IMG/VR virus record: IMGVR_UViG_3300042306_000227
Coordinates: 1-64,000 of that record
Strand: one strand, 5' to 3'
DNA from: a virus
Length of the DNA: 64,000 nt
Both the position numbers and the translations under genes were made by a program. How positions within the stretch are numbered: position 1 is the first letter of the stretch; the number at the start of each line of letters is the position of its first letter. Positions 6,114 through 61,050 of this stretch are shown piece by piece. The notes under the pieces were generated by a model. That model was not told the origin of the DNA, ran no database searches, and saw nothing but the letters and a program-made list of their open reading frames with translations.

Positions 6114-6144
6114 TCGCAATCCCTAGTATGCTCATCTGTATGCT

Positions 6145-7243: not shown

Positions 7244-7244
7244 A

Positions 7245-7372
7245 ACACTGCACTTTTGCACGTGTAAATCGTAATACTACGATACGTATATATTCGTAAT
7301 TATACGAATTGATATACGAATGTCCAGTTATTGCTTTACTAAACTGGACTTAAGTAAAGCTATTGCTATACT
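7245..7372. repeat. array of five different short palindromes
   Basis: Includes ATCGTA-N4-TACGAT, ATTCGTA-N4-TACGAAT and GTCCAGTT-N12-AACTGGAC. Confidence 0.7.
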
Positions 7373-7468
7373 ATGAGAAATACTATGTAATATATATAAG
7401 AAGGAAACCTCATAACTCTCTGACAATCAATACCTGTTTCTCAATTTTTTTAAAAATAAAAAGGAAAA

Positions 7469-7500
7469 TTTGGTTTATGAGGGTATAATAACTAGATTTG
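7469..7500 (+). promoter_or_regulatory. Bacteroidota primary-sigma promoter
   Basis: TTTG-N20-TAGATTTG. Confidence 0.75.
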
Positions 7501-18813: not shown

Positions 18814-18840
18814 CGAGCCCTGTTTCTACAGGGCTTTTTT
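18814..18840 (+). terminator. intrinsic terminator (identical copy at 50098)
   Basis: CGAGCCCTGTTTCTACAGGGCTTTTTT. Confidence 0.8.
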
Positions 18841-18876
18841 AATTAAAATACCTATCTTTGCCTAAAAGGATAAAAC

Positions 18877-34000: not shown

Positions 34001-36012
34001 ATATTATAGTTCCAGCTTGGTTTGCTGATGCATGGTATAACAGGAATATGGCTACAGGAGATACGTCTTCCTTAATAGCTAAAATAACTGGAGCAAATGT
34101 TTTAAGGCTAGTAGCTACTGGTATTAACCCTGTATTCGGTATTGCTCAAATTGTACCAGATACAATATCAGCATATGCATCCACACTAGAAGAAAGAAAA
34201 CTTCCTTTGCTTATAGACTACCCTAGGTTCTTTATAAAGACATTAGCTGCTTCAAGGGATATTATGAAAAAAACAGATGATTTTAAAGAAGCGACTAAAT
34301 ATGGAGCTACTACAAATTTCTACAACGGAGGTTCTGTTTCTTTTGAAAGAGGATTGATGGGTCTAGAGGATAAGTCTTTAGAGAAGGTTGTAGAAGAGTG
34401 GAATGTGCCTGTGTTAAAACAGTATGTTATGGGGTCTAAAAGAATCACAGAGACTACAGAACAAATGACAAAAGTTGCTATATATAAAGAGATAAGAGAC
34501 AGAAAAATAAAAGAATTTAAGCAGGAGAATAATAGAGAGCCAAACTCGCAAGAACTAGAAGACATAAAAATAGAGTCTGGGTCTATGGCAAGAGGTACTG
34601 CTGATTTCCATAGAAAGGGTTCTAGCGCATCTAATGTGAATAAGGTTATACCATACTTAAATGCAGCTATACAAATTAACAGAGCTGTATTAAGGTCTAT
34701 TAAAAAGAATCCAATGAAAGCTGTATACTACTCTATGGAGTATATGGGTCATGCTGCTGTATTTAGTTTAATGGCTATGGGAGCTGGTGATGATGATGAA
34801 TTAAAAGAAAAGAAAAGAAGGGCATACTTAGGTCTTAGTGAATTTGAGAGGGATAATAACTTTTTAATGTACTTTAATGAGTCAGAAGGAAAGTTTGTAG
34901 CTCAAAAACTACCTTCATTCTTAGTCCCATTTAATGCATTTTCAAGAAGGCTTACAGAAAGAATATACCTTGAGAAAAAAGAGATTACACCAAAAGACAT
35001 TCGTGAAATTGCGTCTAGTGTAGCAGATATGTTCCCTTTATTGCAAATATTAAATGTTGAAAAAACTTTATCTAGAAACCCAGCATATAGCTTTGCAGCA
35101 AAACTATTCTTCAATAGAGACCCTTATAGACAAGAAGCGGTAGCTAAATACGATGAGTCTACAAAAAACTACCTAGAAGGAGCTATGATAGGGAAAGAGC
35201 AATCTTCTGCATTTTCAAGAAAAATAGGTGAGTTAACAAAAAATGGAGTGCCATTATTCCCAGAAGGTATTTCTCCAAAAAGACTTGATGCGGCACTTGG
35301 CTCTATACCATTCCAATCTAACCCAATATCAGCATTCCCATTATTTGCGGCAGATGCAACAAGTATAACAATGGAAGAATTTGAAGAAAAGTACGGCAAG
35401 AATGCTGCTAGTATCATTCTGTCTGCAAGTGGAATCTCAAAAAGATACTTTAAGGGCGGAAGTAGAATAAATCAAAATTTAGCTGGATTATCACTTGAGA
35501 ATATAAAAGACAGAGGCGAAATGAAAAACAAGATAGCTGAAATGATTCTGCCAAAGTTTGAAGAATTTACAAAGAATATGACTAGAGAAGATGCATTTGT
35601 AAAGGCAACTGAAGATTTTATATCAAATGAGTTTGATAAGTTAACGGTTGAGCAAAAGATAATAGCTCAAGGATATATAACTGGCGACCTTAGAGGTAGA
35701 ATATTTAATGTTACAAAAGACAAGCAAGTATCTCAAATATTAAATATGGAAGACCCTAATGCTAAGATAGATGCTATATTGTACACAATGAAGAATGTTA
35801 GAACCACAGATAGCTCAAGAGATGCATTTATAAACGAGCTTGTTCAAAATGGGATAACAGCTAACGAGTCTTTTGGTAGAATGTTAGCAGTAAGAGGTGA
35901 ACAAGAACTTCCAAACCCAGAGACTGGTGTAATGGAGAAGAATAACAGGTATGAAAAAGAGGTAGGAGAGCTGTTGAAGAAACTGACAATAATCTTTGAA
36001 AAGTCTCAATAA
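28057..36012 (+). CDS. giant internal virion (ejection) polyvalent protein with zincin-like metallopeptidase motif and LPD38-like C-terminus
   Basis: 2651 aa; 'KGFYMSSDGNIHLN...TMLHEGFHP...KEA' (HExxH); C-terminal 'ADFHRKGS...IPYLNAAIQ'. Confidence 0.7.
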   Translation: MNFEQNFSPLDPNSEEYQSVDNFGQELDPLAPKKPKTIPGTNVPIGGTGIPVTKVDKPFTQIENSIKSVKTANTEYQNLLAKKGGASSVYGEAPGDEIERNKQFTSALKSQSDELLKKYSNDINKPIDQVISSGKWEEYITESGGFNYDKARGYFDYVVKQNGGGTYVRDLMISKFQNAVVAKKNEKDVKPFLKEEIAKTGLNLDKDGNVDFASIIGTENLKAGQEAKLKSIAPAQFNKLQLIESDSEKQVNQLLNASKDVFKQEELKFNTLKQQVQAQLTAGQITQEEAQNTINDALSGINQMSESLNNDFQKAVRDIRVKTSSKYARISKEIGAIGSGMSLDDIISGLPKDKQKEVRDRVEAAKAKVNIAYENAYSKLSSTKNEGKKAQESMIGLGGLAGKSFLSGWNNGLASLGGYLNMNGIDNSFADWLRAHSTTGEELAPAQYEWSGKEWYKRGISSAMQSTGMSLPTMAPTLAITAAGTAAGVPAVGLAVINGVLGYLGERNQNSFEVYDKEIKKGSNPNDALIKAETFERMSVSELPFHLLGGLADVKLFQLGASATKSAGKGVKSIVTEYGKSFGGELLEEYPTELLQNYNQAKLDGYKGSLFEYGASNPELFLDTLVSTLGQGSVFAGAGKVFGAFTSAAPESRIQFYTDMIQKNGIEYAKTVAKKYYDSGILDGATATSVSAEIDDASKIYSDLLESGLDDNAAKLYVAMHYQSKSLSSKADNKKESVMGSLAKLQLANTQSQMKELANGTLPYVVMEIPGGENSSRVISLQDFNTLTPAQKTNVIQASNSISVINDEDANTSLQEQKKQLGNTPNAPVGLFTNNIKTTQDATQESTREEQISTEQGGISQYQGTQPIQEQATNETKDSNRPISGTKKVITLQNINEIEQIEGNNTQKKVLGDVKNVTSSIAGFVQQDTGSELKVNIHDQNSFTQAVLEAGGTQQDAKSKGFYMSSDGNIHLNMDNVSEDTMLHEGFHPVLDYIEKNSPDTMNSLFEQLKSIPQAQDFVQKAEAAYNENGSITVKKEAITDFIANVANGNVKVDATNLETLKNYIIGLLNKLGLNLKQNRILNLETAEDLKNLATFITEKFTSGSEITQSELGKFVETKPTAENPIAKSGQLQFSKTIYGESGIEKSPALDSDEFVQAVQDGRISVSNPYQSLMGKFFGITFPDDLFTGELKVNGETVGFGFGGVFYVAKFGAKGLAWASVGKQSASNFTIQANASLKKNNGEGIIVLSKGDDIKHATSLQAKVAFINTLLKYAENNNQGESLVKSIRKIYNIGNAKSPSKIIEYFNNYLASGRMESGQTMFDAKGSFDNLMTSIIKEAQPVITKMFQDMGLEGDTYFDKTQLRKDNKIATTKGLKSLYADMLQEDFLKGAPKGGIYAAIKFSSELEYVVDKSHPSYPYVIKTKDGSPVKLEVFSKTFNAYGKDVAVKGVERNTQNAFGVVTTTKPNFQINEEMEGNKSEHILSNKLDAYEAISKGKSAPQFQKDIVPTGGVPSVPGETGVGEANQPSGLPEKKKYSWEKGTSGKPEPGETMIKTSTGRYVAIETMAGQMMDRDKVINEIKKAEPSFFSKHIRDIRTKWRDNQYNVLKSLSEIGKSGMLVKHYLLTRNSASATATAAVESAIKEIYGKISKKKTFNINGAKVTEYVLFNQMINYQRVISIQEQMNDAYKTMISSEPGSQEYNKAKKKLLDNNMIDVNGDYVGESLDTEFAMGNVTATQSKALLYEIRESIGEESFDKLMNASEKYSNHFNKMMKERYEAGLISEDTYKYLSKFYYAPGRYVSDVLIDPILSIAKTTPTYQSTSILKMRSLAGGTERLNLNDYEGLLRAVTYASEYSIAENRATNRFYDLISENKTQFNSSGIRLGTKLVPIEAEGPVKFDIIDEKVIAIQEGKAKSALELPSGQKQLPYKGIQKPSDMPVGKYIQPIDIVLDEDGNKFRVVYETPKVGEDIIKTYYNGQQYDIIVPAWFADAWYNRNMATGDTSSLIAKITGANVLRLVATGINPVFGIAQIVPDTISAYASTLEERKLPLLIDYPRFFIKTLAASRDIMKKTDDFKEATKYGATTNFYNGGSVSFERGLMGLEDKSLEKVVEEWNVPVLKQYVMGSKRITETTEQMTKVAIYKEIRDRKIKEFKQENNREPNSQELEDIKIESGSMARGTADFHRKGSSASNVNKVIPYLNAAIQINRAVLRSIKKNPMKAVYYSMEYMGHAAVFSLMAMGAGDDDELKEKKRRAYLGLSEFERDNNFLMYFNESEGKFVAQKLPSFLVPFNAFSRRLTERIYLEKKEITPKDIREIASSVADMFPLLQILNVEKTLSRNPAYSFAAKLFFNRDPYRQEAVAKYDESTKNYLEGAMIGKEQSSAFSRKIGELTKNGVPLFPEGISPKRLDAALGSIPFQSNPISAFPLFAADATSITMEEFEEKYGKNAASIILSASGISKRYFKGGSRINQNLAGLSLENIKDRGEMKNKIAEMILPKFEEFTKNMTREDAFVKATEDFISNEFDKLTVEQKIIAQGYITGDLRGRIFNVTKDKQVSQILNMEDPNAKIDAILYTMKNVRTTDSSRDAFINELVQNGITANESFGRMLAVRGEQELPNPETGVMEKNNRYEKEVGELLKKLTIIFEKSQ
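30578..30724 (+). CDS. small basic protein nested in the +1 frame of the giant gene
   Basis: MPLKKAQGKSKSALNKAVSANIRELNQSKNKRPMKQKIAIALSAARRK, A-rich upstream region. Confidence 0.7.
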   Translation: MPLKKAQGKSKSALNKAVSANIRELNQSKNKRPMKQKIAIALSAARRK

Positions 36013-42098: not shown

Positions 42099-44768
42099 AT
42101 GGGTAAGACAAAAGATTTAGGACACTTAGCACACATAGTAGTATACGATGCAGAAAACCATATAACAGTTCCTGCTGGAATTACTATGCATACAAATCAG
42201 CTAGTAGCATCCCAAGCATGGGTAACTACAGCTTTGGGTTCTTATGCATTGTCATCTGCTCTAGGTTCATATGTGCCTACATCTAGGACTATAACAATAA
42301 ATGGTACAACATTTGATTTAAGCGCTAATAGAAGCTGGGATATAACTTCAATGATATATCCTGCTGCTGGTATTGCTTTGTCTACAGGTACAGGATGGGG
42401 TACTTCTATAACCAATAACTCAGGTAACTGGAATACAGCTTTTGGATGGGGTAATCACGCTTCAGCGGGGTACTTGACAGGAATAACTTCTACTCAAGTA
42501 ACGACAGCTTTAGGGTTTACTCCTGTAACAAATGCTAGAACTATTACAATTAATGGGACGGCATATGATTTGAGTACAGACAGGAGTTGGACTGTAAGTG
42601 GAACAGATAGTACTAAACTCCCCTTAGCTGGTGGCACAATGACTGGAAGTATTGAAATGGCTACTTCTGGAACTAGTTATATTAGAATGGGTAGATTTCC
42701 TAATTCAACATCAAATGGCGGTGAGGCTTGGATAGGTAGAGCTTCTGACAGAAGTGCTGGTACTATGACTGTTCAATTAGGTTCTGCAAATAGTTCATTT
42801 TTTGAAGTAGTTGATTATGGTTGGACTACAGTTACTTTAAAAGTAGGAATGAATGATTTTTCTTATAAGGGGAATGCTGTAATTCACGCTGGTAATATTG
42901 GTTCTCAATCAGTATCAACTGCAAGTGCTGCATCTAGTGCAACCTTTTTAACACAAGCTAATGCTACATGGGGAGCTAGACTACAAATAGGGGGTAATGG
43001 TGACCCAGGAGCTATTGCTAATATAGCTGTTGTTCAAGCTACAGATGGTAATTTACACATGGATAGCGGTACTGGCAAATCCATGTATTTAAATTATTAT
43101 CGTAATGGAGTAATATATTTAAATGGAGCTACTTATTATATTAGTTCTAATGGAGCTAATTATAATGGAACAGCTGCGAATGCAGGTAATGCTGATACAC
43201 TGGATGGATATCATGGTTCAAATTATCCTGGTAAAAATGGCAATACTTATTATCAAGTAGAAACATGGCTTCAATTAACAGGAGTTCATGGATTATACTG
43301 CCCTTCTGTAAATAATGCTCACTTATACCCAAATGATGCTTCTTATGGAGCTTGGAGAATATCAGGAACTAGAAATGGATGGAATGGTATTCATTTTGGA
43401 GGTGGTAATGGCATGACTCTAATGATGAATGAAACAGAGTTTGGATTTCATAGAGAAGGTATTGGATGGTCAGCTAGATTTACAAGCGGTACTGGTCATT
43501 TTAATATATCAGGTAGTGCAGCAAGTGCTAGTAGCGCTAGCTCAGCTACTTCTGCGGAATATTTCCCAACAGCATATGTTGGAGGTCAGCAAACTAATCC
43601 TCAAGTTTATTTTAATAATGGAATTGGCTTAAAGGCTGCAATGACAGGTGCTTGGTCTGTATGGTCTGATACATTATGGGTTAATGGATATTCTGGTGGT
43701 GATGTCCCTTGGATGTGCGCACTTCACTTTTTAAGAAATAGTGAACCAAGATTTGCTATTAGTGCGCAACAAAGGCAAAGTACAAGTTATGGCTCTTTTT
43801 ATGAAGTAATTACATCTTATAATATTGCATCTCAAACAGTTGCTAATTTATCAGGATTTAATAAGAGTGAACCAACATTTGCAAATGTGTATAATACTGG
43901 ATGGTTTAGAAACTATGCGGATAGTGGATTATATAACCAAGACTATGGATGTCATTTGGTTAGAAACGGTCAATCATCTCATGGTGCTTGGTCTATTTTT
44001 GGATATACTAAAGCTGGGTATATTGGTATGAACTTAAGAGACCCTCAGACTTACAATAATAACCTGATGTACGAGAATGGCAACGGAGGCATGTATACAG
44101 AAAATGCAAACGGTTGGCAATGGTATTATAACAGAGGTTCAAACTGTTTAGGTCTTGGAGGCTCTACTACATACAACTGGGTTAGAGCTGTTGTAAATGG
44201 TAAACTTAAAATTGAATCTGATTCTATCCATACAGGATGGGCATATTTTGATAGCAATCTTCAACTTGCTGGTGGTGGTAATATTCTTTACAACGAATAT
44301 AATCTTTGGTATGTATGGAGAAACTGGGGGGGATGGGGTGGAGAATGGATTAATCGTAATGGTGGTGATATGATTATGAACCTATATGCTGTTTATGCAG
44401 TGACAGGTAGCGTATCGGATATTAGGTACAAAAAAGATATTACACCTTTATCGTATGGATTGAATGAAATCATGCAAATGAATCCGATTAAGTATCATTA
44501 CAACTTACCTAAAGAATCAATGTTAGCTAACGACCCTGATTACTTCTTAGGATTTTCTGCACAAGAAATGCAAAATATTATTCCAGAAGCTGTTCACGAA
44601 AAGATGGGAGATTCATCAGAGACTATGACTGGCATGCTTGCAATCACTATGGATGAGATAATACCTGTATTAGTGAATGGCATAAAAGAGCAACAAGTAA
44701 TGATACGCAACCAAAATAATAAAATCAATAAACTAGAAGCACTAGTAAACCAACTATTAAATAATTAA
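42099..44768 (+). CDS. tail fibre with peptidase S74 chaperone
   Basis: 'NADTLDGYH', 'SDIRYKKDI...GFSAQEM...PEAV'. Confidence 0.88.
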   Translation: MGKTKDLGHLAHIVVYDAENHITVPAGITMHTNQLVASQAWVTTALGSYALSSALGSYVPTSRTITINGTTFDLSANRSWDITSMIYPAAGIALSTGTGWGTSITNNSGNWNTAFGWGNHASAGYLTGITSTQVTTALGFTPVTNARTITINGTAYDLSTDRSWTVSGTDSTKLPLAGGTMTGSIEMATSGTSYIRMGRFPNSTSNGGEAWIGRASDRSAGTMTVQLGSANSSFFEVVDYGWTTVTLKVGMNDFSYKGNAVIHAGNIGSQSVSTASAASSATFLTQANATWGARLQIGGNGDPGAIANIAVVQATDGNLHMDSGTGKSMYLNYYRNGVIYLNGATYYISSNGANYNGTAANAGNADTLDGYHGSNYPGKNGNTYYQVETWLQLTGVHGLYCPSVNNAHLYPNDASYGAWRISGTRNGWNGIHFGGGNGMTLMMNETEFGFHREGIGWSARFTSGTGHFNISGSAASASSASSATSAEYFPTAYVGGQQTNPQVYFNNGIGLKAAMTGAWSVWSDTLWVNGYSGGDVPWMCALHFLRNSEPRFAISAQQRQSTSYGSFYEVITSYNIASQTVANLSGFNKSEPTFANVYNTGWFRNYADSGLYNQDYGCHLVRNGQSSHGAWSIFGYTKAGYIGMNLRDPQTYNNNLMYENGNGGMYTENANGWQWYYNRGSNCLGLGGSTTYNWVRAVVNGKLKIESDSIHTGWAYFDSNLQLAGGGNILYNEYNLWYVWRNWGGWGGEWINRNGGDMIMNLYAVYAVTGSVSDIRYKKDITPLSYGLNEIMQMNPIKYHYNLPKESMLANDPDYFLGFSAQEMQNIIPEAVHEKMGDSSETMTGMLAITMDEIIPVLVNGIKEQQVMIRNQNNKINKLEALVNQLLNN

Positions 44769-44770
44769 TT

Positions 44771-45244
44771 ATGGCATACAAAATAAACAAAGAAATAGTA
44801 ACATCTAAGGGTGTTACATCTGAGGCTTACGTAAGAATATCTAAGTATGAAATTGATAAAGCTGGTGATGCTAGCTTTAAGATTGAAGTATTTTTAAATC
44901 AAGAATCTTCTACAACAGTAGATGGTGGATTGTTTAATCCTGCTTCTGCAACAATTGCAGATATAGGCCCTTATGTTGTAGTACCTCTTAAAAAAACTAT
45001 ACAAGTAGCTGTGCCAAATAAAAGAACAGAAGTGGTAGATGTCCCAGAAGAACTAGACGAGGAGGGTAATGTAATTAAGATGGCTACAAAACAATACGTT
45101 GAATTTGAAGGGGAAGATTTGGTTGATAGAACTGTACCTGATTTAACTCCTGTAGAAAATGGAACTGTTTTTGAGTTTGGTTATGCTAAATTAAGAGATG
45201 TATTAGTATCTTTGTACGGAGAGGAAAATATTGAAATTGTATAA
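44771..45244 (+). CDS. fibre-associated protein, paralogue A
   Basis: KGVTSEAYVRI...FEFGYAKL, shared with the next ORF. Confidence 0.7.
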   Translation: MAYKINKEIVTSKGVTSEAYVRISKYEIDKAGDASFKIEVFLNQESSTTVDGGLFNPASATIADIGPYVVVPLKKTIQVAVPNKRTEVVDVPEELDEEGNVIKMATKQYVEFEGEDLVDRTVPDLTPVENGTVFEFGYAKLRDVLVSLYGEENIEIV

Positions 45245-45262
45245 TATTTAAATAAACAAATA

Positions 45263-45748
45263 ATGGCATTAAAAATCACAACACAGATTGGTACAGACAA
45301 AGGTATCACATCTGAGGCTTACGTAAGAATCGCAGACTATCAAGTATCTAAGTACGGTAGTGCTAGCTTTAGAATTGAATTATTCCAAACTCAGGCTGAC
45401 TCAGTAGTTACTAATGGTATGATGTATCCGACCCCTTCTACTGGCGGCCAGGCTCGTAACCAACAAGTAGGTGATAACCTATGGGTTGCTATGACTAAAG
45501 AAGTAGAAGCTACAAGAACAGTACAAAGAAATGTAGAAGTAGTAACAGACGCTGTTTTAGATTCAGAGGGAGAGGTTATAACTCCTGCAAGTTCTACTTG
45601 GGAAATGCAAGATGTGGAAGAAACATACACAGCTACAGTTCCTGACTTGACTCCTTTAGAAGACGAGACTATCTTTGAATTCGGCTATGCTAAGCTTAAA
45701 GATAAATTAGTAGGATTATTTGGAGCTGAGAACGTAGTAGATTGTTAG
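45263..45748 (+). CDS. fibre-associated protein, paralogue B
   Basis: KGITSEAYVRI...FEFGYAKL. Confidence 0.7.
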   Translation: MALKITTQIGTDKGITSEAYVRIADYQVSKYGSASFRIELFQTQADSVVTNGMMYPTPSTGGQARNQQVGDNLWVAMTKEVEATRTVQRNVEVVTDAVLDSEGEVITPASSTWEMQDVEETYTATVPDLTPLEDETIFEFGYAKLKDKLVGLFGAENVVDC

Positions 45749-45771: not shown

Positions 45772-48486
45772 ATGAGTTTAAAAGCAATAGATACTGGTTT
45801 TCTCAGGAATTTAGTTTCATACGATAATATAGGTAACATTTCGTTACCTGCTAGTTTGTCTATTTTTGTCAATAAAGAAGTAGCTACAAAAGAATACGTA
45901 GACGCTCAGAATAGTGGTCAGGTTCTACAATCTAGAACTTTGACTATTAATGGGGTTACTTACGACCTTTCAGCAAATAGAAGTTGGACTATAGATTCTA
46001 TGGTATATCCGTCAGCAGGTATCGCTTTATCAAGTGGTACTGGCTGGGGAGCTTCTATTACAAATAATTCAGCAAATTGGAATACTGCGTTTGGATGGGG
46101 TAATCATGCTTTAGCTGGATACCTTACATCATTTACAGAGACAGACCCCACAGTCCCATCTCATGTAAAGGCTATTACTACAACTAAGATAAGCGATTGG
46201 GATGCTGCATTTGGATGGGGGAACCATGCATCTGCAGGTTATGAAATTGCGTCTAACAAATCAAATAATGCTGCTTTAGGAAACTCTAGTACGTTATATC
46301 CAACGCAAGCAGCAGTAAAATCTTATGTTGATTCTGCTGTGACTGGTGGAGTAAACATACAAGGTGATTGGAATGCAAATACCAATACTCCTAATATATC
46401 AGGCACTACTACTACTGGATTTACATGGAGGGTTTCCGTAGCTGGTTCAACTAATTTAGGTGGAATTACTACTTGGAATGTTAATGACTTAGCTGTTAAA
46501 ACAGCAGCTGGTTGGATTAAAATTGATAATAGTTCATCTGTTATTTCTGTATATGGTAGACAAGGTGTTGTTGTAGCTAATGCTGGGGATTATAATACAT
46601 CTCAAGTTACCGAAGCTGTTGGTAGTTTATACTTTACTACAGCTAGAGCTAGAGCGTCATTTAGCGCAGGCACAAATGTATCAATAGATGCAAATGGTGT
46701 AATTAGCTCAGTAAATACAACTTATAATAATTTTACCAGAACGGTTGCAGGCTTAGTGCCAAACCCAGGAGGCTCTTCAACTACTCGTTATTTAAGAGAG
46801 GATGGTACATGGGTAATACCACCTGATACAATTGTAACATCATTAGCATGGACTAGCATTACTAGTAGACCAACTAAATTATCTGACTTTACAAATGACT
46901 TAGGAAACTATGGTTCATTTTTAACAGCATACACTGACACATTAGCTACTGTTACAAATAGAGGAAATTCTACAGCACAAAATATAGTTTTTAGTAATGG
47001 AAGGAAGGGGCTTGTAGGTGTTTATGATGCTGCACAGACTCAAGCAATATTTGCTATGGGTGCTGCTTATGTTTTAGCAGATGGAGGTGCTTCAAATAAT
47101 ATAGGAAATCTTTACGGACTAGCTTGGTCATATAATCCAGACTACGGAGGCGCAGGTAATAATCCGCAATCAAAAGCAGGGTTAAATCATCAGTTATTGT
47201 TGATGCAAGCAGGTGTTACTACCGCAGCAATAGGTTCTGGTATATGGACAAGTGGAAATATATCTGCAGCTAATTTTAGTGGTTCACATAGTGGTACTTC
47301 TTCAGGAACAAATACAGGAGACCAAGTAAATATTAGTGGTAATGCTGCGACAGCGACGTCAGCTACATCAGCTACAATATCAACTTTTTTGTCATCTCCT
47401 GATGGAGATAGATTAGCAGGCAGTAAATTACCTAATGGTACTGTAAGAGCAATTAGGTTTGATTTTGCAAATGCAAACTCTATTACAGGTGCAACAGGAA
47501 ATTATGCAGGTGTAATGACTTATTCTCCTTGGGATGGTACTGTAGCTTCTACTGGAGACTCTTCATATCAATTAGCATTTATTAATGAAACAGGTGTTAA
47601 CGCAAGTGGAGCCCCTGGCCTTAGATTTAGAAATGGTATTGACTCAACTTGGAATGGTTGGACATCAATAATAACATCTTCTAATATAGGTTCTTATACA
47701 GCAGGTGGTGTTGCTTGGGGTAATGTGTCTGGAAGACCAACGGCATTAAGTCAATTTACAAATGATTTAGGGAACTATGGAGGCTGGGTTGTTAGAAGTG
47801 GCGACAGCATGAGTGGTAGACTTACTATTAATAGTGGGGGGAATAATTTGCCATTGCATGTTCTTTCTGTAGAACCTTATATACAACTTCAGGCAACAGG
47901 AGAAACGAATTCTACATCTTTTAGAATGTATCCTACAGGTGGTTTTAATGCTTCAATAGGTAATTACGCTACAGGGGAATTGTGCCTTGTTGCCGCAAAC
48001 AGCGAGGCTGTCTTTATTAACAGCAATAGCATACGTGTAAATAAATATAGATTTAATGGGAATGGCACATTATCTGGTAATGGATTAGTTGAAATTGTTG
48101 ATATGGCTAATGTTGGAATGGCAACACAAGCAAATTCATATAGATGGTATAGTGCTAATGCTGCTAATATATTAATGTCATTAAATACATCAGGACATCT
48201 TACTGCTAACGCATTCTTTGAAGCATCAGATATTAGATACAAAAATGTAACCGAGACTAATCCAGATATTAGTGGGCTTGGTATTGATGTGATTAAATTT
48301 ACTAGACACGGAAGTGATATAGTAAGATATGGTTATTCTGCACAGCAAGTGCAATCAGTTATACCAGATGCTGTAGAAGGTAAAGATGTACTAACTGTAA
48401 ACTATATGGATGTTCATACTTTAAAGATTGCATCTTTAGAAAGAAGAGTTAAAGAATTAGAAGAAAGACTAAAAAGCACATTATAA
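45772..48486 (+). CDS. tail fibre with peptidase S74 chaperone
   Basis: ETDPTVP, 'SDIRYKNV...YGYSAQQVQSVIPDAV'. Confidence 0.85.
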   Translation: MSLKAIDTGFLRNLVSYDNIGNISLPASLSIFVNKEVATKEYVDAQNSGQVLQSRTLTINGVTYDLSANRSWTIDSMVYPSAGIALSSGTGWGASITNNSANWNTAFGWGNHALAGYLTSFTETDPTVPSHVKAITTTKISDWDAAFGWGNHASAGYEIASNKSNNAALGNSSTLYPTQAAVKSYVDSAVTGGVNIQGDWNANTNTPNISGTTTTGFTWRVSVAGSTNLGGITTWNVNDLAVKTAAGWIKIDNSSSVISVYGRQGVVVANAGDYNTSQVTEAVGSLYFTTARARASFSAGTNVSIDANGVISSVNTTYNNFTRTVAGLVPNPGGSSTTRYLREDGTWVIPPDTIVTSLAWTSITSRPTKLSDFTNDLGNYGSFLTAYTDTLATVTNRGNSTAQNIVFSNGRKGLVGVYDAAQTQAIFAMGAAYVLADGGASNNIGNLYGLAWSYNPDYGGAGNNPQSKAGLNHQLLLMQAGVTTAAIGSGIWTSGNISAANFSGSHSGTSSGTNTGDQVNISGNAATATSATSATISTFLSSPDGDRLAGSKLPNGTVRAIRFDFANANSITGATGNYAGVMTYSPWDGTVASTGDSSYQLAFINETGVNASGAPGLRFRNGIDSTWNGWTSIITSSNIGSYTAGGVAWGNVSGRPTALSQFTNDLGNYGGWVVRSGDSMSGRLTINSGGNNLPLHVLSVEPYIQLQATGETNSTSFRMYPTGGFNASIGNYATGELCLVAANSEAVFINSNSIRVNKYRFNGNGTLSGNGLVEIVDMANVGMATQANSYRWYSANAANILMSLNTSGHLTANAFFEASDIRYKNVTETNPDISGLGIDVIKFTRHGSDIVRYGYSAQQVQSVIPDAVEGKDVLTVNYMDVHTLKIASLERRVKELEERLKSTL

Positions 48487-50097: not shown

Positions 50098-50124
50098 CGA
50101 GCCCTGTTTCTACAGGGCTTTTTT
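50098..50124 (+). terminator. intrinsic terminator (identical to 18814-18840)
   Basis: CGAGCCCTGTTTCTACAGGGCTTTTTT. Confidence 0.8.
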
Positions 50125-50143
50125 ATTTTAGTACCTTTGCATT

Positions 50144-53553: not shown

Positions 53554-53560
53554 AAACATA

Positions 53561-53665
53561 AGTCAGAAACCGCAAAATCTGACTCATATATCAATCAATC
53601 TTGAGCCGTTTATCAATCGTATTCGGCTCATTTTTGAGCGATAAGTATAATTTAAATGAGCGATA
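53561..53665. repeat. palindrome and direct-repeat array
   Basis: AGTCAGA-N10-TCTGACT, TGAGCCG-N15-CGGCTCA, TGAGCGATA twice with a 22-bp period. Confidence 0.7.
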
Positions 53666-53666
53666 T

Positions 53667-54389
53667 ATGAAAATTATAAAATCTTGTTGTACCATAATTA
53701 TAATCCTTTGCTTTATTAATGGTCAAGCTCAGGTAGCGACAACTAAGACAGAGAACTATAAAGCTAGTTTTGAGACTAAGATTGACATCAGTCAGTACAT
53801 GGACTATGATGGGCCGACTATACCAATTCAAATACTTAAATGCGGAATAAATGACGAAATGTATGAAATGTATCCAGAACTTAAGGAAAAGAGGGTTGGT
53901 TTGGGCGTGGCAAACATCTCTATGGAGTACCTGGAAAACCTCAATCGCTTCACTTTCACGGAGGACAAGACTGAGATTAAGAATAGAATGGTTAAACAAT
54001 TCCAGGCCTCTCAAGCAGGAATTTCTCAAGATAAGTTGGATGGAAGAGGAAAGATTAGACTAGCACATTACTTTGTTGAGATTGAGTGCTATGATTATTC
54101 TGTTTCAGAAGATGAAGAGATTAGGGTAAAAGATGGCATTAAGGAGACTGTTGTCACAAGAATAGGATTACAGGTAAGATTTACGGATGCGCAGACAGGT
54201 GAAATCATAGCTGCATCTGGATTGGGAGAAGCTAAAACTACACGAGAAGCAAGCCTATTGAATGACGAGAATCTTAGTGAAGTTAAATTTAATCAGTCAA
54301 CGATAGGAACTGCAACAAAGAAAGCACTAGATATTGCGTGTGCTCGCATCCTATCAAGAATGATTAAAAAGAATGTATTCCCTAAATAA
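53667..54389 (+). CDS. CsgG/HfaB-family outer-membrane assembly/transport protein
   Basis: Start at ATG 53667, signal peptide QA-Q; 'YLENLNRFTFTE', 'LQVRFTDAQTGEII' CsgG-like motifs. Confidence 0.7.
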   Translation: MKIIKSCCTIIIILCFINGQAQVATTKTENYKASFETKIDISQYMDYDGPTIPIQILKCGINDEMYEMYPELKEKRVGLGVANISMEYLENLNRFTFTEDKTEIKNRMVKQFQASQAGISQDKLDGRGKIRLAHYFVEIECYDYSVSEDEEIRVKDGIKETVVTRIGLQVRFTDAQTGEIIAASGLGEAKTTREASLLNDENLSEVKFNQSTIGTATKKALDIACARILSRMIKKNVFPK

Positions 54390-55611
54390 AACACTTTTTC
54401 GTACGATATTCTGTACACTTTTGACACTTTCATTGACGAGTGCAAAAGCGCAGATACTTACAAGTACATTTATAGACCCATGTAGCAAGAAGGTCACAGT
54501 CTTTGTAGTGCCAATTCAAGGTACTACAATTGTGTTTATGGGTAAGTCTAAATACATAACAGCTCAGGATGTAAAGTCAGGTGCTTTAATGACTTGGGTA
54601 AATCAAGTATACGCAGAGTATTCAGCGCCATGCCCTGTTACACAACTTACTCAACAATTAACACAGCAAACGGTAACAAATTCAGTTTCAGCAGCAGTAA
54701 GTTCAGCAGCATCAAGTGCCGCTGCGAGTGCTGCTAGCAGTGTAAGTGTTCCAACTCCTGCTCCTGCTCCTGCGCCATCTTCTGCACCTTCTAGCCAACC
54801 AACTTCCTCTCAGAGTGATGGTAGCTCTAGCTCTAGCTCGTCTCAGAATGATGGTAGTTCTAGCGAAAGCAGTTCTGAGTCCTCTGAAAGTAAATCTGAG
54901 AGTAAATCCGAGGATAAAAAAGAAGAAAAGAAAGAAGAGAAGAAAGAGGAAAAGAAAAAGTCTTCCGCAAAGGCAGGACAAACCCCATTGATTTTTTCGT
55001 CTGATTTGAGTGCGGTTCAGCAGTTTCAAGGTGACTTTAATTTAATGGCAAATTTAGGCGTTTCTAGAGCATCTATGGCAGGAGACGTGTCTTACGGCTC
55101 TACATTGACAATCTTCTCAAATTTAAGACAATTTGCCCTATCTACAAGGTATTCTAAGATGGATATTCAGAATGGGACTTTATGTGGCGTAGGGACAACT
55201 TCTTACACAATGGCATATAATGATGGAGGCATCATACATATACTAGGTAAATCATATGTAATGTCCCATAAGTCATACATTTATGGCTATGCCTTGACTA
55301 TTATTAATACATCTATCCCATTTGAGGCTGTAAAACAACAATTCTGGACTTCTTCTATAGTGTTATTTGGCATGAAGCCATACGTTTACAGCAAAAGATT
55401 GACTATAACACCAGAGGTTTTTTTAATGTCTAACCCACTGAGTTATACAAGTAAATCAAAGGATTTGACATCTATGAGTCAATTAAGCTACATATTAGGC
55501 TCATCATTTGACATAGCATTGTCTAAGAGATTTAGACTTGCAACTAATATTAAATACATGGGGCCGCTTCATACAATTGGATTGCAGTTAGGAACAAAGT
55601 TTAACCTATAG
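54373..55611 (+). CDS. outer-membrane beta-barrel protein with Ser/Ala/Pro and EKKE linker
   Basis: Signal peptide AKA-Q, low-complexity linker, ~200 aa of alternating beta-strands ending GTKFNL. Confidence 0.65.
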   Translation: MYSLNKTLFRTIFCTLLTLSLTSAKAQILTSTFIDPCSKKVTVFVVPIQGTTIVFMGKSKYITAQDVKSGALMTWVNQVYAEYSAPCPVTQLTQQLTQQTVTNSVSAAVSSAASSAAASAASSVSVPTPAPAPAPSSAPSSQPTSSQSDGSSSSSSSQNDGSSSESSSESSESKSESKSEDKKEEKKEEKKEEKKKSSAKAGQTPLIFSSDLSAVQQFQGDFNLMANLGVSRASMAGDVSYGSTLTIFSNLRQFALSTRYSKMDIQNGTLCGVGTTSYTMAYNDGGIIHILGKSYVMSHKSYIYGYALTIINTSIPFEAVKQQFWTSSIVLFGMKPYVYSKRLTITPEVFLMSNPLSYTSKSKDLTSMSQLSYILGSSFDIALSKRFRLATNIKYMGPLHTIGLQLGTKFNL

Positions 55612-55612
55612 T

Positions 55613-55830
55613 TGCATGAATTTTTCTGATTTTTCATGCACTGAATTAGAAATATATATCTAAAATGTAATTTATTTGTACCTATTTTATATTCTATTGC
55701 GTATAATTAGAAGTATATTTCCAATTTTATATGCGAAAGGGTATAATGTGTCATAAAAAGCACTTTTTGACTTATATATGTCCCATATAAGTCACATTGA
55801 CTTACAAGCTCATGCAAATACACTATAAGT
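55613..55830. repeat. array of about eight different imperfect palindromes
   Basis: Includes TGCATGAA-N12-TTCATGCA, TTATATGC-GAAA-GGGTATAA and GTCATAAAAAGCACTTTTTGAC. Confidence 0.7.
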
Positions 55831-55851
55831 TTTATTCATTAAATTTGCAAT

Positions 55852-56454
55852 ATGAAAAAGATATTACAGGGTGCTGTATTGGTGATAGTTGTCGGTCTTA
55901 TATTCTCAAAGATGACAGGGGTTAAAAACCCATTCTCGCCTAAGATAAAATATATTGCAGGTAAACCTTACGAGGTTATTAAGCATGAGATAGATACTGT
56001 TGACATTATTAAGACTAAGGTGATTACCAAACAAGGTAAGGACATCTACCACGATACGACAATCTTCGTGCAAGTCCCAATGAATGTAGACACATTAGAA
56101 ATTATTAAAATGTATTTCGCCAAGAATGTATACAAGGATACCTTACGTTTACCTGACAGCTTAGGATATGTTGTACTATTGGACACCATTAGTAAGAATA
56201 CGATTGAGTCTAGGATGTTCACAGCTAATGTGAAGCAAAGAACTATTAAAGAGACTACCATTGTTAAAGAGCTACCTAAGACCAAGTTATTTTGGGGTGT
56301 AGGAGCGTCATTTGACAAGGTAAACTTTGTAAACAACGTACAGGTAAATCTACTTTTAAATACAAAGTGTGATAAGCTATACAATGTAGGAGCAGGAATT
56401 GACATCAATAAGACACCGTTTGTTAACGCATCTATTTACTGGAAAATAAAATAA
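55852..56454 (+). CDS. membrane-anchored lysis-module protein (spanin-like candidate)
   Basis: N-terminal TM, DT-rich stalk, C-terminal beta-strands ending YWKIK; upstream of holin and endolysin. Confidence 0.55.
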   Translation: MKKILQGAVLVIVVGLIFSKMTGVKNPFSPKIKYIAGKPYEVIKHEIDTVDIIKTKVITKQGKDIYHDTTIFVQVPMNVDTLEIIKMYFAKNVYKDTLRLPDSLGYVVLLDTISKNTIESRMFTANVKQRTIKETTIVKELPKTKLFWGVGASFDKVNFVNNVQVNLLLNTKCDKLYNVGAGIDINKTPFVNASIYWKIK

Positions 56455-56456
56455 TT

Positions 56457-56702
56457 ATGAAAGATTTTTTACTTAGAATGTTCAGCGATAAGTCTGACAT
56501 AAATCAAAAGGCTGTGTTAGGATTTGTATCGTTTCTGTTAATGGCTATATATGCCCTAACAGATGTGGTTACAGGAGCAATAGGAATTACGTTTGTTATT
56601 GAGCCTATAGTATTTAACGGATTGATGTACACAGCTTTGACTATGTGTGGCATCACAGGTGTAGAGGCTGTATTTGGTAACAAGAACATAAAAGATAAAT
56701 AA
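56457..56702 (+). CDS. putative holin
   Basis: 81 aa, two TMs, basic C-terminus, coupled to the endolysin. Confidence 0.65.
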   Translation: MKDFLLRMFSDKSDINQKAVLGFVSFLLMAIYALTDVVTGAIGITFVIEPIVFNGLMYTALTMCGITGVEAVFGNKNIKDK

Positions 56703-57301
56703 TGAATCTAGATAGATTAAAAGGTCACATCCCAGACTCAGTAATAAATCAGATACCAGAAGTGTCTACTAAATTTGGTGTTAATACTCCACAGAGATTA
56801 GCTCATTTCTTAGCTCAAACAGGTCATGAAAGTGGTGGGTTCAGAGTAACAACAGAGAATTTAAACTATAGCGCAAAAGGTTTGTGTGGTATTTTTAAGA
56901 AATACTTTACACCAGAAAGCGCACAAGAATATCAACGTAAGCCAGAAAAGATTGCTAATATTGTGTACGCAAACAGAATGGGTAATGGTAATCAGGCTAG
57001 TGGAGATGGGTTTAAGTTTCGTGGTAGAGGTTATATCCAATTAACAGGTAAAACTAACTACCAAGCATTTGATAAAACAGTAGAAGATAACATTGAAGCA
57101 AACCCTGATTTGGTTGCTACAAAATATCCTTTATTATCAGCTGCATGGTTTTGGAGTAAGAACGGATTAAATGCAATAGCTGATACAGGTGCAGGAGAAG
57201 ATGTGGTAACTAAAATTACAAAAAGGGTTAACGGAGGCACTATCGGTCTTGCTGATAGAATAGCTCATTTTAAAGAATATTATAATCTATTAAAAGCTTA
57301 A
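56702..57301 (+). CDS. glycoside hydrolase family 19 endolysin
   Basis: AHFLAQTGHESGGF, ENLNYS, FRGRGYIQLTG, SAAWFW, VNGGTIGLADR. Confidence 0.93.
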   Translation: MNLDRLKGHIPDSVINQIPEVSTKFGVNTPQRLAHFLAQTGHESGGFRVTTENLNYSAKGLCGIFKKYFTPESAQEYQRKPEKIANIVYANRMGNGNQASGDGFKFRGRGYIQLTGKTNYQAFDKTVEDNIEANPDLVATKYPLLSAAWFWSKNGLNAIADTGAGEDVVTKITKRVNGGTIGLADRIAHFKEYYNLLKA

Positions 57302-59845: not shown

Positions 59846-60637
59846 CTATTTTATCCACATTGGTAGCCCAAGTGTATGAATCTCTTCAACACCTGTCTTT
59901 GAGTATCCACTTACAGGATATCCTGCATCCATCCACATCTTAAATTCACCGAGCAATCGTGTTAGTTCTTGAATACCATAATCAACATAAGCCCTGTCTG
60001 CTTGAAAAACTGTTGTGATGTATGGGTAAACACTCTCTACTACTATGTACATAAATGGAGGATACTCATCTCTCTCTATTATTCCAAGTTCTCTAAGAGC
60101 TAGTGTATACACAGCCGCTTGGATGTAATATTTTTTATTAAAGAAATCTTTAGGCACCTCATTAGGGTCTGCTGTTTTAGATGTCTTCAACTCTACTATG
60201 TATGGATTATCTAACATGTACCCAATACCATCAATGAATCCTCGCATTGGCATAGTCATTATATTAATAATGAACTGCTTCTCTGTTTCTTTCATGTTAT
60301 CAAGAACAGACTTAGCTTTCTTATACGAATACACTGACTCTTGCATGTCCTTTGCTTGTTGCCAAACATCAGGGTCAATAACCTCTAATCCTTTGTTAGC
60401 TAATTCAAACTCCTCCTTTGCCTCCTTGTCTGCCTTCTTACGAAGGTCAAACTTAGGAGACACGATGTATTTAGAAGCCTCTTTTGGTTCCAATATGAGG
60501 GTATGGACAAGGCTACCTAACTGCATCTGAGGGGATGTTGTTTTAGGTTGGGTAATATACTTTATGTAGTGTAGTGGCGATATAGCAAAGTTTGATAACG
60601 AGCTAAACGACAATGGTCTTTCGTTAATATCAATCAT
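59846..60637 (-). CDS. exonuclease VIII-like PD-(D/E)XK nuclease (DUF3799-like)
   Basis: LSFSSL, LGSLVHTLILEP, RGFID, VELKT, YYIQAAVY. Confidence 0.85.
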   Translation of the reverse strand: MIDINERPLSFSSLSNFAISPLHYIKYITQPKTTSPQMQLGSLVHTLILEPKEASKYIVSPKFDLRKKADKEAKEEFELANKGLEVIDPDVWQQAKDMQESVYSYKKAKSVLDNMKETEKQFIINIMTMPMRGFIDGIGYMLDNPYIVELKTSKTADPNEVPKDFFNKKYYIQAAVYTLALRELGIIERDEYPPFMYIVVESVYPYITTVFQADRAYVDYGIQELTRLLGEFKMWMDAGYPVSGYSKTGVEEIHTLGLPMWIK

Positions 60638-61050
60638 TAGAAAAAGTTTTGTGGTGTAGGTATAGTCTTACTAGAAGATGCCTGCTCTCCTGATGCGTCT
60701 GTGTCTTTATCAGTAACTAAGCCTAACATACTAGATAGGGCGTATCTTCTAAAGTAAGTTACACCTGAGCCATATGCTTGGTATTCATTCATGCCTCCTA
60801 ATAATTGTACATATGGTATTGGCGTAGATGACTCTAAGAATTCTTCTGATGGTACATGGTATAGAATTGTCTTAATCGTATTATCCTGTAATGGCTGAGA
60901 TACAACTAATCCATGCTTTTTTAGTAATGGGTTGATAACGCTGTAGATTTTAGGTAAATCTGCATATGTGTACTTGTGTCCTATAGTATCTTTATGGATA
61001 ACAGGGCATTCTTGTTGGAAATCTCCCAACGCTTTCATTAGGTTTTTCAT
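60637..61050 (-). CDS. erf: ERF-family ssDNA annealing protein
   Basis: YTYADL, PLLKKHGL, GSGVTYFRRYAL..MLGL, DTDA. Confidence 0.9.
   Translation of the reverse strand: MKNLMKALGDFQQECPVIHKDTIGHKYTYADLPKIYSVINPLLKKHGLVVSQPLQDNTIKTILYHVPSEEFLESSTPIPYVQLLGGMNEYQAYGSGVTYFRRYALSSMLGLVTDKDTDASGEQASSSKTIPTPQNFF

Follow-up and report, generated by a model that had tools for sequence, protein, structure and literature searches.

What are closely packed palindromes doing between the structural genes and the lysis genes of a phage? The window, a stretch of 64,000 nucleotides, belongs to a ~66-kb crAss-like phage from lake water, and in it 240 bp (55612–55851) lie between ORF 54373–55611 and ORF 55852–56454. 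A sequence-only reading had described this gap as a dense array of eight imperfect palindromes upstream of the lysis cassette, drawn from host operators, which might serve as a decoy or let host regulators gate lysis. The location is correct, ORF 56702–57301 being an endolysin (PHROG 181, E 4e-72; Pfam Glyco_hydro_19), and all eight strings are present, at 55613, 55646, 55687, 55705, 55727, 55750, 55778 (which that reading put at about 55779) and 55800; the TTATA-N10-TATAA pattern of 55687 is found again at 55727. Arm complementarity is complete at 55613 (8/8) and in the 5-nt pairs of 55646, 55687 and 55727 (5/5), and amounts to 9/11 at 55705, 6/7 at 55800 and only 7/10 at 55778; the arms of 55750 pair at 7/9 ungapped and, by eye, perfectly if a 1-nt bulge is allowed. 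The best palindrome, TGACTTATAT-N7-ATATAAGTCA at 55768–55794 (arms 10/10), had been overlooked.

The density of the array was compared with 1000 dinucleotide shuffles of the region, and here the earlier description holds in part. The longest arm (10 observed, 7.0 expected; fraction of shuffles reaching the observed value 0.027) and the share of bases within arms (0.52 against 0.35; fraction 0.021) lie above the shuffles, whereas the number of inverted repeats with arms of at least 5 (14 against 10.3±3.2) is within chance (fraction 0.156). Repeats with arms of at least 8 number 2, with 0.33 expected (fraction 0.049). Palindrome density is only marginally above composition-matched chance, and most of the 5-nt units are the ordinary yield of AT-rich DNA. 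Within the real genome the region does stand out: of 1218 sliding 240-bp windows, 0.33% equal or exceed its palindrome score, and of the 66 windows with a GC content of 0.30 or less, 1.5% do so. The units count as real features because they recur in other phages, not because of palindrome statistics.

Comparison with relatives reveals a clean insertion of 235 nt separating the last structural gene from the lysis cassette. The nearest relative, G004, lacks exactly 55605–55839: its flanks are 93–95% nucleotide-identical on both sides, and the alignment (93%) stops at 55604 and resumes at 55840 with 5 nt in between. The insert is missing from seven of the eight related loci that have both flanking genes, with 2–25 nt separating the genes. 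Another contig, L002, has module A, a B pair and C-D, the last in inverted orientation, at the identical site, in flanks 78% nucleotide-identical to the window; a search for the units in shuffled order among related phages, proposed earlier, thus has a positive outcome. The insert is optional and was acquired horizontally; it is pieced together from phage-specific non-coding modules that belong to at least three families, with weaker E-type units besides (Table 1). Since the nearest relative lacks it, any function that it has is dispensable. Gene comparison among the relatives found no gene common only to the array-bearing G000 and G002, and a cognate phage protein, if there is one, is therefore either present in all relatives or absent.

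Table 1. Coordinates, within the window, of the insert, its modules and the features around it.
Feature	Coordinates	Strand	Description
Second patch	53590..53727	+	same vocabulary; iterons TTATCAATC / GAGCCG / TGAGCGATA
Upstream gene	54373..55611	+	412 aa, last gene of structural block
Accessory insert	55605..55839	.	from upstream gene's last sense codon to ancestral TAA stop/promoter box
Module A	55613..55640	.	palindrome TGCATGAA-N12-TTCATGCA, 28 bp; arms 8/8
Module E	55644..55663	.	AATTAGAAATATATATCTAA, AT-rich palindromic unit; flanks A as inverted pair in other phages
Module B1	55687..55707	-	degenerate inverted B-site copy (TTATATTCTATTGCGTATAAT); like inverted second copy in L405
Module E'	55705..55726	.	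AATTAGAAGTATATTTCCAATT, 9/11 palindrome, second E-type unit
Module B2	55727..55747	+	TTATATGCGAAAGGGTATAAT, exact B-family member
Module C-D	55743..55800	+	57-nt quasi-palindrome; 21-nt inverted arms of type ATAATGTGnCnTAnAnnGnAC, 16-nt centre
Insert right end	55810..55837	-	inverted imperfect copy of left junction; includes lone A half-site CTCATGCAAAT
Promoter box	55840..55847	+	TAAATTTG, host-type (Bacteroidota) -7 box, 12 nt before first lysis-cassette ATG
Lysis cassette	55852..57301	+	200-aa protein with hydrophobic N-terminus, 81-aa protein, GH19 endolysin (56702-57301)
Exonuclease	59846..60637		recombination gene of phage
Erf-like protein	60637..61050		recombination gene of phage

The modules circulate among many Bacteroidota-type phages. 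Their order and orientation vary, and they are placed where genes or operons meet, in many cases between terS and terL. Module C-D takes in the noted units 55750 and 55778 together with the 10/10 palindrome. It is 91–93% identical over 56–57 nt to its counterparts in L042, L035, L071, L062, L073 and L055 and, inverted, to the one in L002, and its core pattern is found in at least 117 IMG/VR stretches, a set that overlaps with that of A. As a strict pattern, palindrome D is found at 4 IMG/VR loci only, one of them the L002 contig; it is not a family by itself but part of C-D. The element lies 64–142 nt from the start of terL in either orientation. Among 102 distinct C-D loci the flanking gene is a PBSX-type large terminase in 27 and an HTH small terminase in 26; 27 of the 102 run to the end of their contig without another ORF past the element. 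Other contexts are between genes of clusters c2/c3, c5/c12 and c13/c17.

The A pattern is found in at least 119 IMG/VR stretches, with an AT-rich near-palindromic centre in 88 of 118 A loci among the matches listed. The window's copy matches L035, L055, L062 and L091 at 97% over 31 nt and is without the inner complementarity found in most family members. A half-site stands alone in two of 26 cases, and three of five single mismatches in the arms yield G-T (G-U) pairs. Modules A and C-D co-occur: a C-like site lies within 1 kb in 27 of the 88 AT-loop A loci as against none of 30 GC-loop controls, and an exact A is present in 38 of 96 C-selected loci. The E pattern, likewise found in at least 117 IMG/VR stretches, is not specific because it is too AT-rich; within 600 nt of 108 newly fetched E-pattern loci there were one exact A, six A half-sites and seven C-like sites. 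Locus L241 has an E string identical to that of the window. For the second E-type unit, 11-mers of TATATTTCCAATTT are found again in at least 10 of 201 donor arrays. The string GGGTATAAT alone is not enriched (22 matches against ~23 expected in 1.84 Mb of loci).

Module B is a pair of 21-bp sites whose pattern, TTATAYGCGNNAGGGTATAAT, is found in 37 IMG/VR contigs. Of 20 distinct cases, 16 have their two sites 39–41 nt from each other, whether the copies are direct or inverted, and the 40 nt from the start of B1 to B2 are typical of the family. The surroundings were classified for 28 loci: 14 lie between convergent genes and 13 upstream of a co-directional gene, and the frequency of the former misfits a simple picture of an operator before a promoter. 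In 20 of the 28 the sites begin 1–53 nt past an upstream stop. Neither A nor C-D lies within 1 kb of B at any of the 37 loci.

The window's genome has one copy of each module, and there is one locus in each of ten other module-bearing records. Among the relatives, G001, G003, G004 and G005 have no module match and G002 has one. The records G006–G010 have one locus each; for B, one locus per genome was found in all five records searched (G315–G319).

The phages from which such modules may have come carry donor arrays, non-coding stretches of 0.3–1 kb between terS and terL, in which several modules are combined together with iterons and with direct repeats such as TTATCAATCA and GAGCCG..CGGCTC. 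The same vocabulary makes up a second patch in the window, where 11-mers of the donor arrays form a dense run at 53554–53693. This patch also supplies a new 5' end (signal peptide) to a 240-aa gene starting at 53667, and G004 has 36 nt there instead; between 52000 and 58500, both differences between the window and G004 are patches of module vocabulary. Unit F of the donor arrays shares homology with the gene at 53667, at the 5' end of its coding sequence, and is apparently a decayed gene start. Such a remnant fits junk as well as function, and is a point against the reading in terms of protein-binding sites favoured below.

The frequent company of terminase genes, 27 large and 26 small among the 102 C-D loci, the direct repeats of the donor arrays, the 27 C-D loci that run to a contig end and the single locus per genome would all suit an origin of replication or a packaging site from another group of phages, pieces of which a crAss-like phage now carries. 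This explanation is highly unlikely, given that C-D is found in several further gene contexts, that all 37 B pairs occur without A or C-D and that crAss-like relatives replicate and package without the modules.

Bacterial genomes yield very few matches. The C-D core gave 13 in 185,579 bacterial species genomes, two of them family members, both on short MAG contigs, and the A palindrome occurs in three of 301 genomes from what is likely the host's class, one of these being family-like. On these counts A and C-D appear essentially confined to phages. The host origin of the sites proposed by the sequence-only reading is not supported, A and C-D being nearly absent from the bacterial genomes searched, and at such low counts the suggested enrichment upstream of defence, toxin-antitoxin or regulator genes is impossible; a decoy for host operators is not supported by these matches. 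For A and C-D a CRISPR repeat mimic was also rejected, as both A and the C-D core give single matches only and no regularly spaced series. No cultured or annotated carrier was found among 50,697 phage records (blastn of 55300–56100; tblastn of the 412-aa protein), and the donor array L160:4280–5100 had no blastn match in the same records. The 412-aa protein itself has only a weak PHROG match (head maturation protease, E 4e-4) and no Pfam family. Among the listings of an open-access library, no account of such intergenic palindromic modules of Bacteroidota phages was found.

A decoy or sensor array need not address the host: the sites could titrate host regulators, or bind proteins of competing phages, soaking them up or coupling lysis to co-infection. 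The insert does unite module families found apart elsewhere, none of the 37 B loci having A or C-D within 1 kb; no cognate gene accompanies it, and it sits just 5' of the lysis promoter. Combination is not special to this phage, since donor arrays combine modules too, and a single copy of each site per ~66-kb genome, with B1 and A degenerate, is unlike the array expected for titration; the host version meets the further objection that A and C-D are essentially missing from bacteria. Overall this explanation is very improbable. We consider it highly doubtful, too, that the modules are cis-sites, be they operators, iterons, activator sites or packaging sites, from several host-sharing phage lineages, one of each gathered before the lysis promoter to sense the regulators of co-infecting phages and adjust lysis timing, or to soak those regulators up, as a phage-against-phage form of the earlier decoy idea; more broadly, freshwater Bacteroidota phages would then share a shuffling vocabulary of palindromes that is also a substrate for module exchange.

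The ends of the insert carry traces of its history. At the left, module A begins 1 nt past a new stop codon, TAG. At the right, inverted repeat I1 (28 nt) is 71% complementary to 55592–55619, and what it copies in inverted form is the left arm of A together with the last part of the upstream gene, a sign of accidents in replication or recombination. This bracketing repeat takes in flanking gene sequence, and the ends read TA(G/A)...TAA, a possible TA/TAA duplication that is too short to count as evidence; both are too weak to decide for or against the terminal inverted repeats and target-site duplication of a MITE- or REP-like element. An independent metagenome run contains one collinear contig and one contig in which 112 other letters replace 55605–55947, and population variants with other fillings have breakpoints at the module edges 55604, 55664 and 55744. 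Self-comparison of the 66-kb genome found no repeat involving 54373–55851; with no template repeat matching the 3' end of the gene, the target end of a diversity-generating retroelement was rejected. In the contigs of four runs C-D showed no joint at which the strand changes, though contigs drop rare variants.

The main rival to a binding function is a recombination scar or selfish passenger, that is, a remnant left when the phage recombined, illegitimately or through short homology, with co-infecting phages, and then rearranged by way of its palindromes. The modules would then be functionless here and functional, if at all, only in the donors. Such an origin accords with an insert missing from the nearest relative and most others, with variants that break at module edges, and with a right end that repeats the left junction down to the last codons of the upstream gene. 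It accords also with the degeneracy of B1, with the window's A lacking the inner complementarity of its family, with the apparent gene-start remnant in donor arrays and with the Erf/exonuclease recombination system that the phage encodes. Against it, C-D stays 91–93% identical over 56–57 nt between phages sharing no other detectable DNA, and B2 is an exact family member at the preserved 40-nt spacing; moreover, the window and L002, diverged to 78% identity in the flanks, both retain A, a B pair and C-D despite rearrangement. We regard this rival as rather unlikely, if by some way the most serious.

How the modules might act depends on the promoter that follows them. The box TAAATTTG is invariant in all five aligned sequences and is ancestral, outside the insert; in relatives that lack the insert, the TAA within it serves as the upstream gene's stop. 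It fits TAnnTTTG, which we take to be the -7 box of the Bacteroidota primary sigma factor, a consensus from Bacteroides and Flavobacterium promoters. The genome's own promoters show TAnnTTTG at -12 to -33 in nine of 27 gene starts examined. Within 55605–55839 there is no TAnnTTTG, so that only TAAATTTG fits and no array unit does. A sigma70-like match, TTTCCA-N18-TATAAT at 55718–55747, is one of nine such sites in a scan that gave 8.0±2.7 in shuffles. Around C-D, no TAnnTTTG stands at a constant position in the forward direction (89 loci); on the reverse strand it occurs ~90 nt upstream in 17 of the 89, where it is the terL promoter box of one context. A consensus scan of 55000–56500 returned no terminators. 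Terminator-like elements of the genome are GC-rich hairpins with T runs, including one 31-nt copy pair; an example, GAGCCCTG..CAGGGCTTTTTT, which precedes the genes at 18877 and 50144, is quite unlike the insert modules. Matching neither type found elsewhere in the genome, the modules were rejected as promoters and as intrinsic terminators. The crAss-like phage phi14:2 is reported to have tripartite sigma70-like middle promoters and abundant non-coding RNAs (10.1101/2020.03.07.982082).

Our preferred reading, held tentatively and at somewhat less than an even chance, is that the modules are horizontally acquired, DNA-level protein-binding sites that modulate the lysis promoter. They would be double-stranded sites, operator- or iteron-like, for sequence-specific and probably dimeric proteins encoded by phages. 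Several features point to binding at the DNA level: the 39–41-nt spacing of B and the placing of C-D near terL are kept in either orientation, the arms are conserved in sequence with one-sided variation and no compensatory change, and A half-sites occur alone. The earlier view of the spacer as a collection of differing, separately recurring modules, more like DNA-level binding sites than terminators or CRISPR repeats, is borne out to that extent. The modules lie directly 5' of TAAATTTG, and the proximal edge of C-D would stand ~50 nt upstream of the expected transcription start. They may tune or insulate transcription of the lysis genes; they would not be its source, since in relatives this cassette is expressed in their absence. 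The related suggestion that regulators gate lysis holds in a reduced form: the modules lie 39 nt 5' of the lysis promoter box, but the nearest relative does not have them. The insert was most likely acquired by recombination at short shared sequences during co-infection, for which the phage's Erf-like annealing protein and exonuclease could serve.

REP/BIME-type intercistronic hairpins of enterobacteria stabilise mRNA or attenuate read-through. An array of RNA hairpins at the 3' end of the structural-operon transcript could likewise protect that message or limit how far transcription continues into the lysis genes. In favour of this, A starts 1 nt past a stop codon and B 1–53 nt past one in 20 of 28 loci. 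The plus strand of the spacer folds with z = -3.08, better than 200/200 shuffles (minus strand, z = -1.62), but a low folding energy is expected because the region was chosen for its palindromes. Although three of five single mismatches in the A arms are G-T (G-U) pairs and B can be drawn as a 7-bp stem with a GAAA-type tetraloop, the stems are AT-rich with loops of 7–12 nt; in the right arm of B and in both C-D arms it is the sequence that is conserved, with no compensatory changes on the two sides, the hairpins of C-D differ between subfamilies, and the 39–41-nt spacing of B in either orientation has no obvious RNA reason. A search of Rfam 15 found no relevant family (best of 3 matches 18.4 bits against a threshold of 100). 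On balance this explanation is improbable. A tRNA scan found none. In RNA run X18 there is one 228-nt contig at 56176–56403 and none on the spacer, which says nothing either way on spacer expression.

Other readings of C-D were rejected. A 14-codon mini-ORF (ATG..TAA) loses its ATG in about ten of the listed variants (by eye), and its variation falls at first and second codon positions, against coding. A conserved hairpin fails in that the AAATGCAC/GTGCATTT stem is present in one subfamily only, and sigma-54, CRP-like and DnaA/IHF-box readings gave no consistent fit by eye to the C-D sequences.

Should the modules be binding sites, they would represent several unknown protein–DNA recognition systems across hundreds of uncultured Bacteroidota phages, and the arrays of non-coding DNA that separate terS from terL, long without an explanation, would be covered as well. 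They would offer a handle on DNA exchange between crAss-like and unrelated phages via short conserved non-coding linkers and an Erf-type recombinase, and on the regulation of lysis genes in a group of phages for which hardly any genetics exists. Even as no more than a scar, the insert would provide a clean case from nature of DNA rich in palindromes passing between unrelated phages.

Among known systems, the promoter-early stem-loops (PeSLs) of T4-type phages are mobile regulatory cassettes (PMC2839356, PMC4122927). PeSLs and the present modules are both small conserved non-coding cassettes at gene boundaries, common to otherwise unrelated sequence, and both mark the end points of indels or replacements between close relatives and are thought to be points of homologous exchange; here, the differences from G004 and the population variants fall at such end points. 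There are many PeSLs per genome, in hyperplastic regions, and they combine a sigma70-like promoter with a working terminator, whereas the modules occupy one locus per genome, match neither the promoter nor the terminator type of their genome and, unlike PeSLs, place several unrelated families side by side.

P2/P4 late promoters have upstream activator sites of dyad symmetry. The modules share with operators of this type and with iterons dyad symmetry, arms of ~8 bp, a centre of 10–13 nt and tolerance of either orientation, as well as paired sites about four helical turns apart and tens of nucleotides upstream of a host-type promoter. They differ in that B pairs lie equally between convergent genes, in that the sites are dispensable in this lineage, and in that binding is only a candidate property. 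REP and MITE elements are dispersed in many copies per genome in bacterial chromosomes. With REP/BIME and MITE-like elements the modules have in common that they are short imperfect intergenic palindromes, often just past stop codons, in either orientation and sometimes clustered; they are, by contrast, single-locus and essentially confined to phage contigs, and no dispersed multicopy distribution was seen in the window's genome, G001–G010 or G315–G319. In lambdoid phages, finally, conserved boundary ('linker') sequences mark mosaic junctions. Like them, the modules are short stretches of high identity between dissimilar phages that separate functional gene modules, but they are internally palindromic, fall into several distinct families and build donor arrays of up to ~1 kb.

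The eight imperfect palindromes that the sequence-only reading took for an operator-decoy array fill the entire gap between a 412-aa upstream gene and the opening gene of the block with the GH19 endolysin; their placement upstream of the lysis cassette was right. Eight related IMG/VR loci have both genes; this gap measures 2–25 nt in seven of them, and 220 nt in locus L002 only. At the loci with the short gap, the upstream gene terminates in ...AAT YTN TAA, and the TAA opens a conserved TAAATTTGC that directly precedes the downstream gene's ATG. The alignment with the nearest relative (record G004; most proteins 95–100% identical, 93–95% nucleotide identity around the locus) runs to 55604 and resumes at 55840, with 5 nt between. 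Together with the short gaps of the other relatives, this break indicates that the stretch between was inserted after the last leucine codon and before the old stop. The insert provides the upstream gene with its own stop codon, TAG. Population variants agree with an insertion: an independent metagenome run yields one collinear contig and a second, at about twice its depth, in which 112 other letters replace 55605–55947, while additional joints occur at 55664/55744. Lake-water metagenomes contain DNA near-identical to the window.

Judged by a match to the Crassvirus muzzle protein and by its portal and large terminase genes, the phage is crAss-like. The contig is 73,267 bases long, and the terminal repetition of its first ~7.2 kb implies a genome of about 66 kb; the two end copies may stem from different strains or form an imperfect terminal repeat. 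The place at which crAss-like phages usually have the virion RNA polymerase is occupied here by an ORF of 2651 aa.

Features of the contig and their positions
Feature	Position	Remark
Contig ends	1-7195; 66073-73267	repeat each other, ~94% identical position by position
Stretch richest in palindromes genome-wide	7199-7469	at switch from leftward to rightward genes
Terminator-like hairpin GAGCCCTGTTTCTACAGGGCTTTTTT	18814-18844; 50098-50128	31 nt, copies 97% identical; TAnnTTTG box, then gene start, downstream of each
Crassvirus muzzle protein match	21853-25746	
Large ORF	28057-36012	no Pfam or PHROG match, no DFDxD motif
Tail-fibre region, repeat	42324-42479; 45973-46128	156 nt, 78% identical, in two genes
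Tail-fibre region, further repeat	44757-44892; 45248-45384	
Second patch, donor-array words	53554-53693	
Second patch, iterons	53590-53727	TTATCAATC, GAGCCG..CGGCTC, TGAGCGATA
Upstream gene	54373-55611	
Insertion	55605-55839	
Palindromes first noted	55613-55830	
Module C-D	55743-55800	
Longest-armed palindrome	55768-55794	10/10
Inverted copy of left junction	55810-55837	imperfect; right end of insert
First gene of lysis block	55852-56454	
GH19 endolysin	56702-57301	
Exonuclease and Erf-like single-strand annealing protein	59846-61050	adjoining genes; a phage recombination module

All eight palindromic strings are present, though of unequal quality: arms are only 5 nt in three, and complementarity is 7/10 in unit 55778 and 6/7 in unit 55800. 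As to long palindromes, the one at 55613 (8/8) stands, the 10/10 palindrome had been overlooked and the other units are not long. Against 1000 dinucleotide shuffles, the number of inverted repeats is not in excess (14 versus 10.3 ± 3.2 expected, p = 0.16); marginal values come from the longest arm (p = 0.027), from arms of at least 8 (p = 0.049) and from the fraction of bases lying in arms (p = 0.021). Among 1218 windows genome-wide, the region is in the highest 0.33%. These statistics by themselves would not make it a finding. The stretch richest in palindromes anywhere in the genome consists of a GC-rich hairpin (GGGCCAGGGTCGGCCGCCC...GGGCGGGCCGCCC) followed by repeated ATTCGTA/TACGAAT units, and its AGTTATTGCTTTAC-type words look like donor-array repeats, donors being other phages that bear arrays of the modules described next.

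The units do recur elsewhere as separate families. Module C-D, a 57-nt quasi-palindrome, is 91–93% identical over 56–57 nt to loci that otherwise share nothing with the window, and is inverted in L002. Its core, GTCATAAAANGCACNTTNTGA, matches at least 117 IMG/VR stretches, with a consensus among the matches listed of 57 nt with 21-nt inverted arms. The 28-bp palindrome A occurs in at least 119 stretches; among the matches listed, in 88 of 118 loci the centre is AT-rich and near-palindromic and the flanks are recurrent. A and C-D co-occur: among the matches listed, a C-like site lies within 1 kb of 27 of these 88 loci versus none of 30 control A-pattern matches with GC-rich centres, and exact A is found in 38 of 96 C-selected loci. 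The 21-bp B pattern, TTATAYGCGNNAGGGTATAAT, matches 37 contigs, none with A or C-D within 1 kb of B, and is paired, direct or inverted, at 39–41 nt in 16 of 20 distinct cases. In the window, an exact B2 and an inverted, degenerate B1 are separated by 40 nt; L002 also has two B copies. The AT-rich units (E) yield too AT-rich a pattern for family membership to be judged.

Host genomes, the check put forward in the sequence-only reading, speak against the proposal that the units are operators copied from the host. In 185,579 species, one genome each, the C-D core has 13 matches, of which 11 are chance matches with unrelated flanks and two are family members; these are on MAG contigs of 1.9 and 4.8 kb, from Chitinophagia and Bacteroidota, that are probably phage DNA. 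The A pattern is found in 3 of 301 genomes of the class Chitinophagia, with one family-like match; one of the three genomes is flagged as unpublished. This near-absence of C-D and A argues against host-derived operators; a role as decoy or sensor appears quite improbable.

The modules are single-copy in this genome, are not found in whole records G001, G003, G004 and G005, occur once in G002, which also bears an array, and occupy one locus per record in ten further records. Among the matches listed, 102 distinct C-D loci most often adjoin a PBSX-type large terminase gene (27) or an HTH small terminase gene (26). The donor terminase has its nearest counterparts in Bacteroides phages (37% identity). 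Between terS and terL the array spans 0.3–1 kb of non-coding DNA, with A toward terS and C-D, which can face either way, 64–142 nt from the start of terL; C-D is also present in other gene contexts, and fragments of an origin or packaging site are a very improbable source of the insert. Loci such as L155 and L160 have ~1 kb of ORF-free DNA between the terminase genes, with palindromes of ~8-nt arms and 12–16-nt centres (e.g. TGTCAC..GTGACA), hairpin GGTAGTAnTACTACC and several iteron types. In 20 of 28 loci, B begins 1–53 nt past the stop codon of the gene before it; of the 28, the following gene is co-directional in 13 and convergent in 14.

Within the contig, donor-array words cluster densely in the insert and in a second patch and nowhere else; G004 lacks this second patch too. 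The second patch gives a 240-aa gene a new start codon and signal peptide (MKIIKSCCT...), its G004 counterpart being 36 nt with a different gene start; its donor homologue, unit F, is non-coding and adjoins A.

Of 27 gene starts examined in this genome, 9 have a TAnnTTTG box at −12 to −33, in many cases with a GC-rich hairpin and T run ahead of it. The box of the lysis cassette, TAAATTTG at −12, is kept in all relatives, whether or not they have the insert; the insert itself contains neither a promoter of this type nor a GC-hairpin/T-run terminator. Rfam families, tRNAs and DGR repeats do not fit the region. Dimeric proteins binding double-stranded DNA appear to account for the modules better than RNA stems do, given the fixed B-pair spacing in any orientation, arms conserved in sequence and not in pairing, half-sites occurring alone, C-D lying beside a promoter irrespective of orientation, and a single locus per genome. 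The earlier preference for binding sites over terminators or RNA stems finds support. Plus-strand folding (z = −3.1) is what speaks for an RNA hairpin role, itself improbable.

The proximal edge of C-D lies 39 nt upstream of the lysis promoter box, a distance at which activators or repressors commonly act. The insert may tentatively be regarded as an acquired region that controls or insulates this promoter from upstream, its modules serving as putative sites for dimeric proteins; confidence is held below even, since the insert is missing from close relatives and the gene content of relatives shows no partner gene accompanying it. The main rival, a functionless recombination scar, is rather unlikely; it draws on the phage's Erf-like annealing protein and exonuclease, the inverted copy of the left junction, the degenerate B1 and an apparent gene-start remnant in donor arrays.

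No description of these modules was found in the literature at index level. The nearest described counterpart is the PeSL cassette of T4-type phages, outlined as a small conserved promoter-terminator unit that marks indel end points and mediates modular shuffling (PMC2839356, PMC4122927). Going by that outline, the modules too are conserved non-coding linkers at mosaic junctions, but they are without recognisable promoter and terminator parts. They thus resemble a known kind, PeSL-type linkers, and differ in sitting at one locus and in assembling into arrays of several unrelated families.
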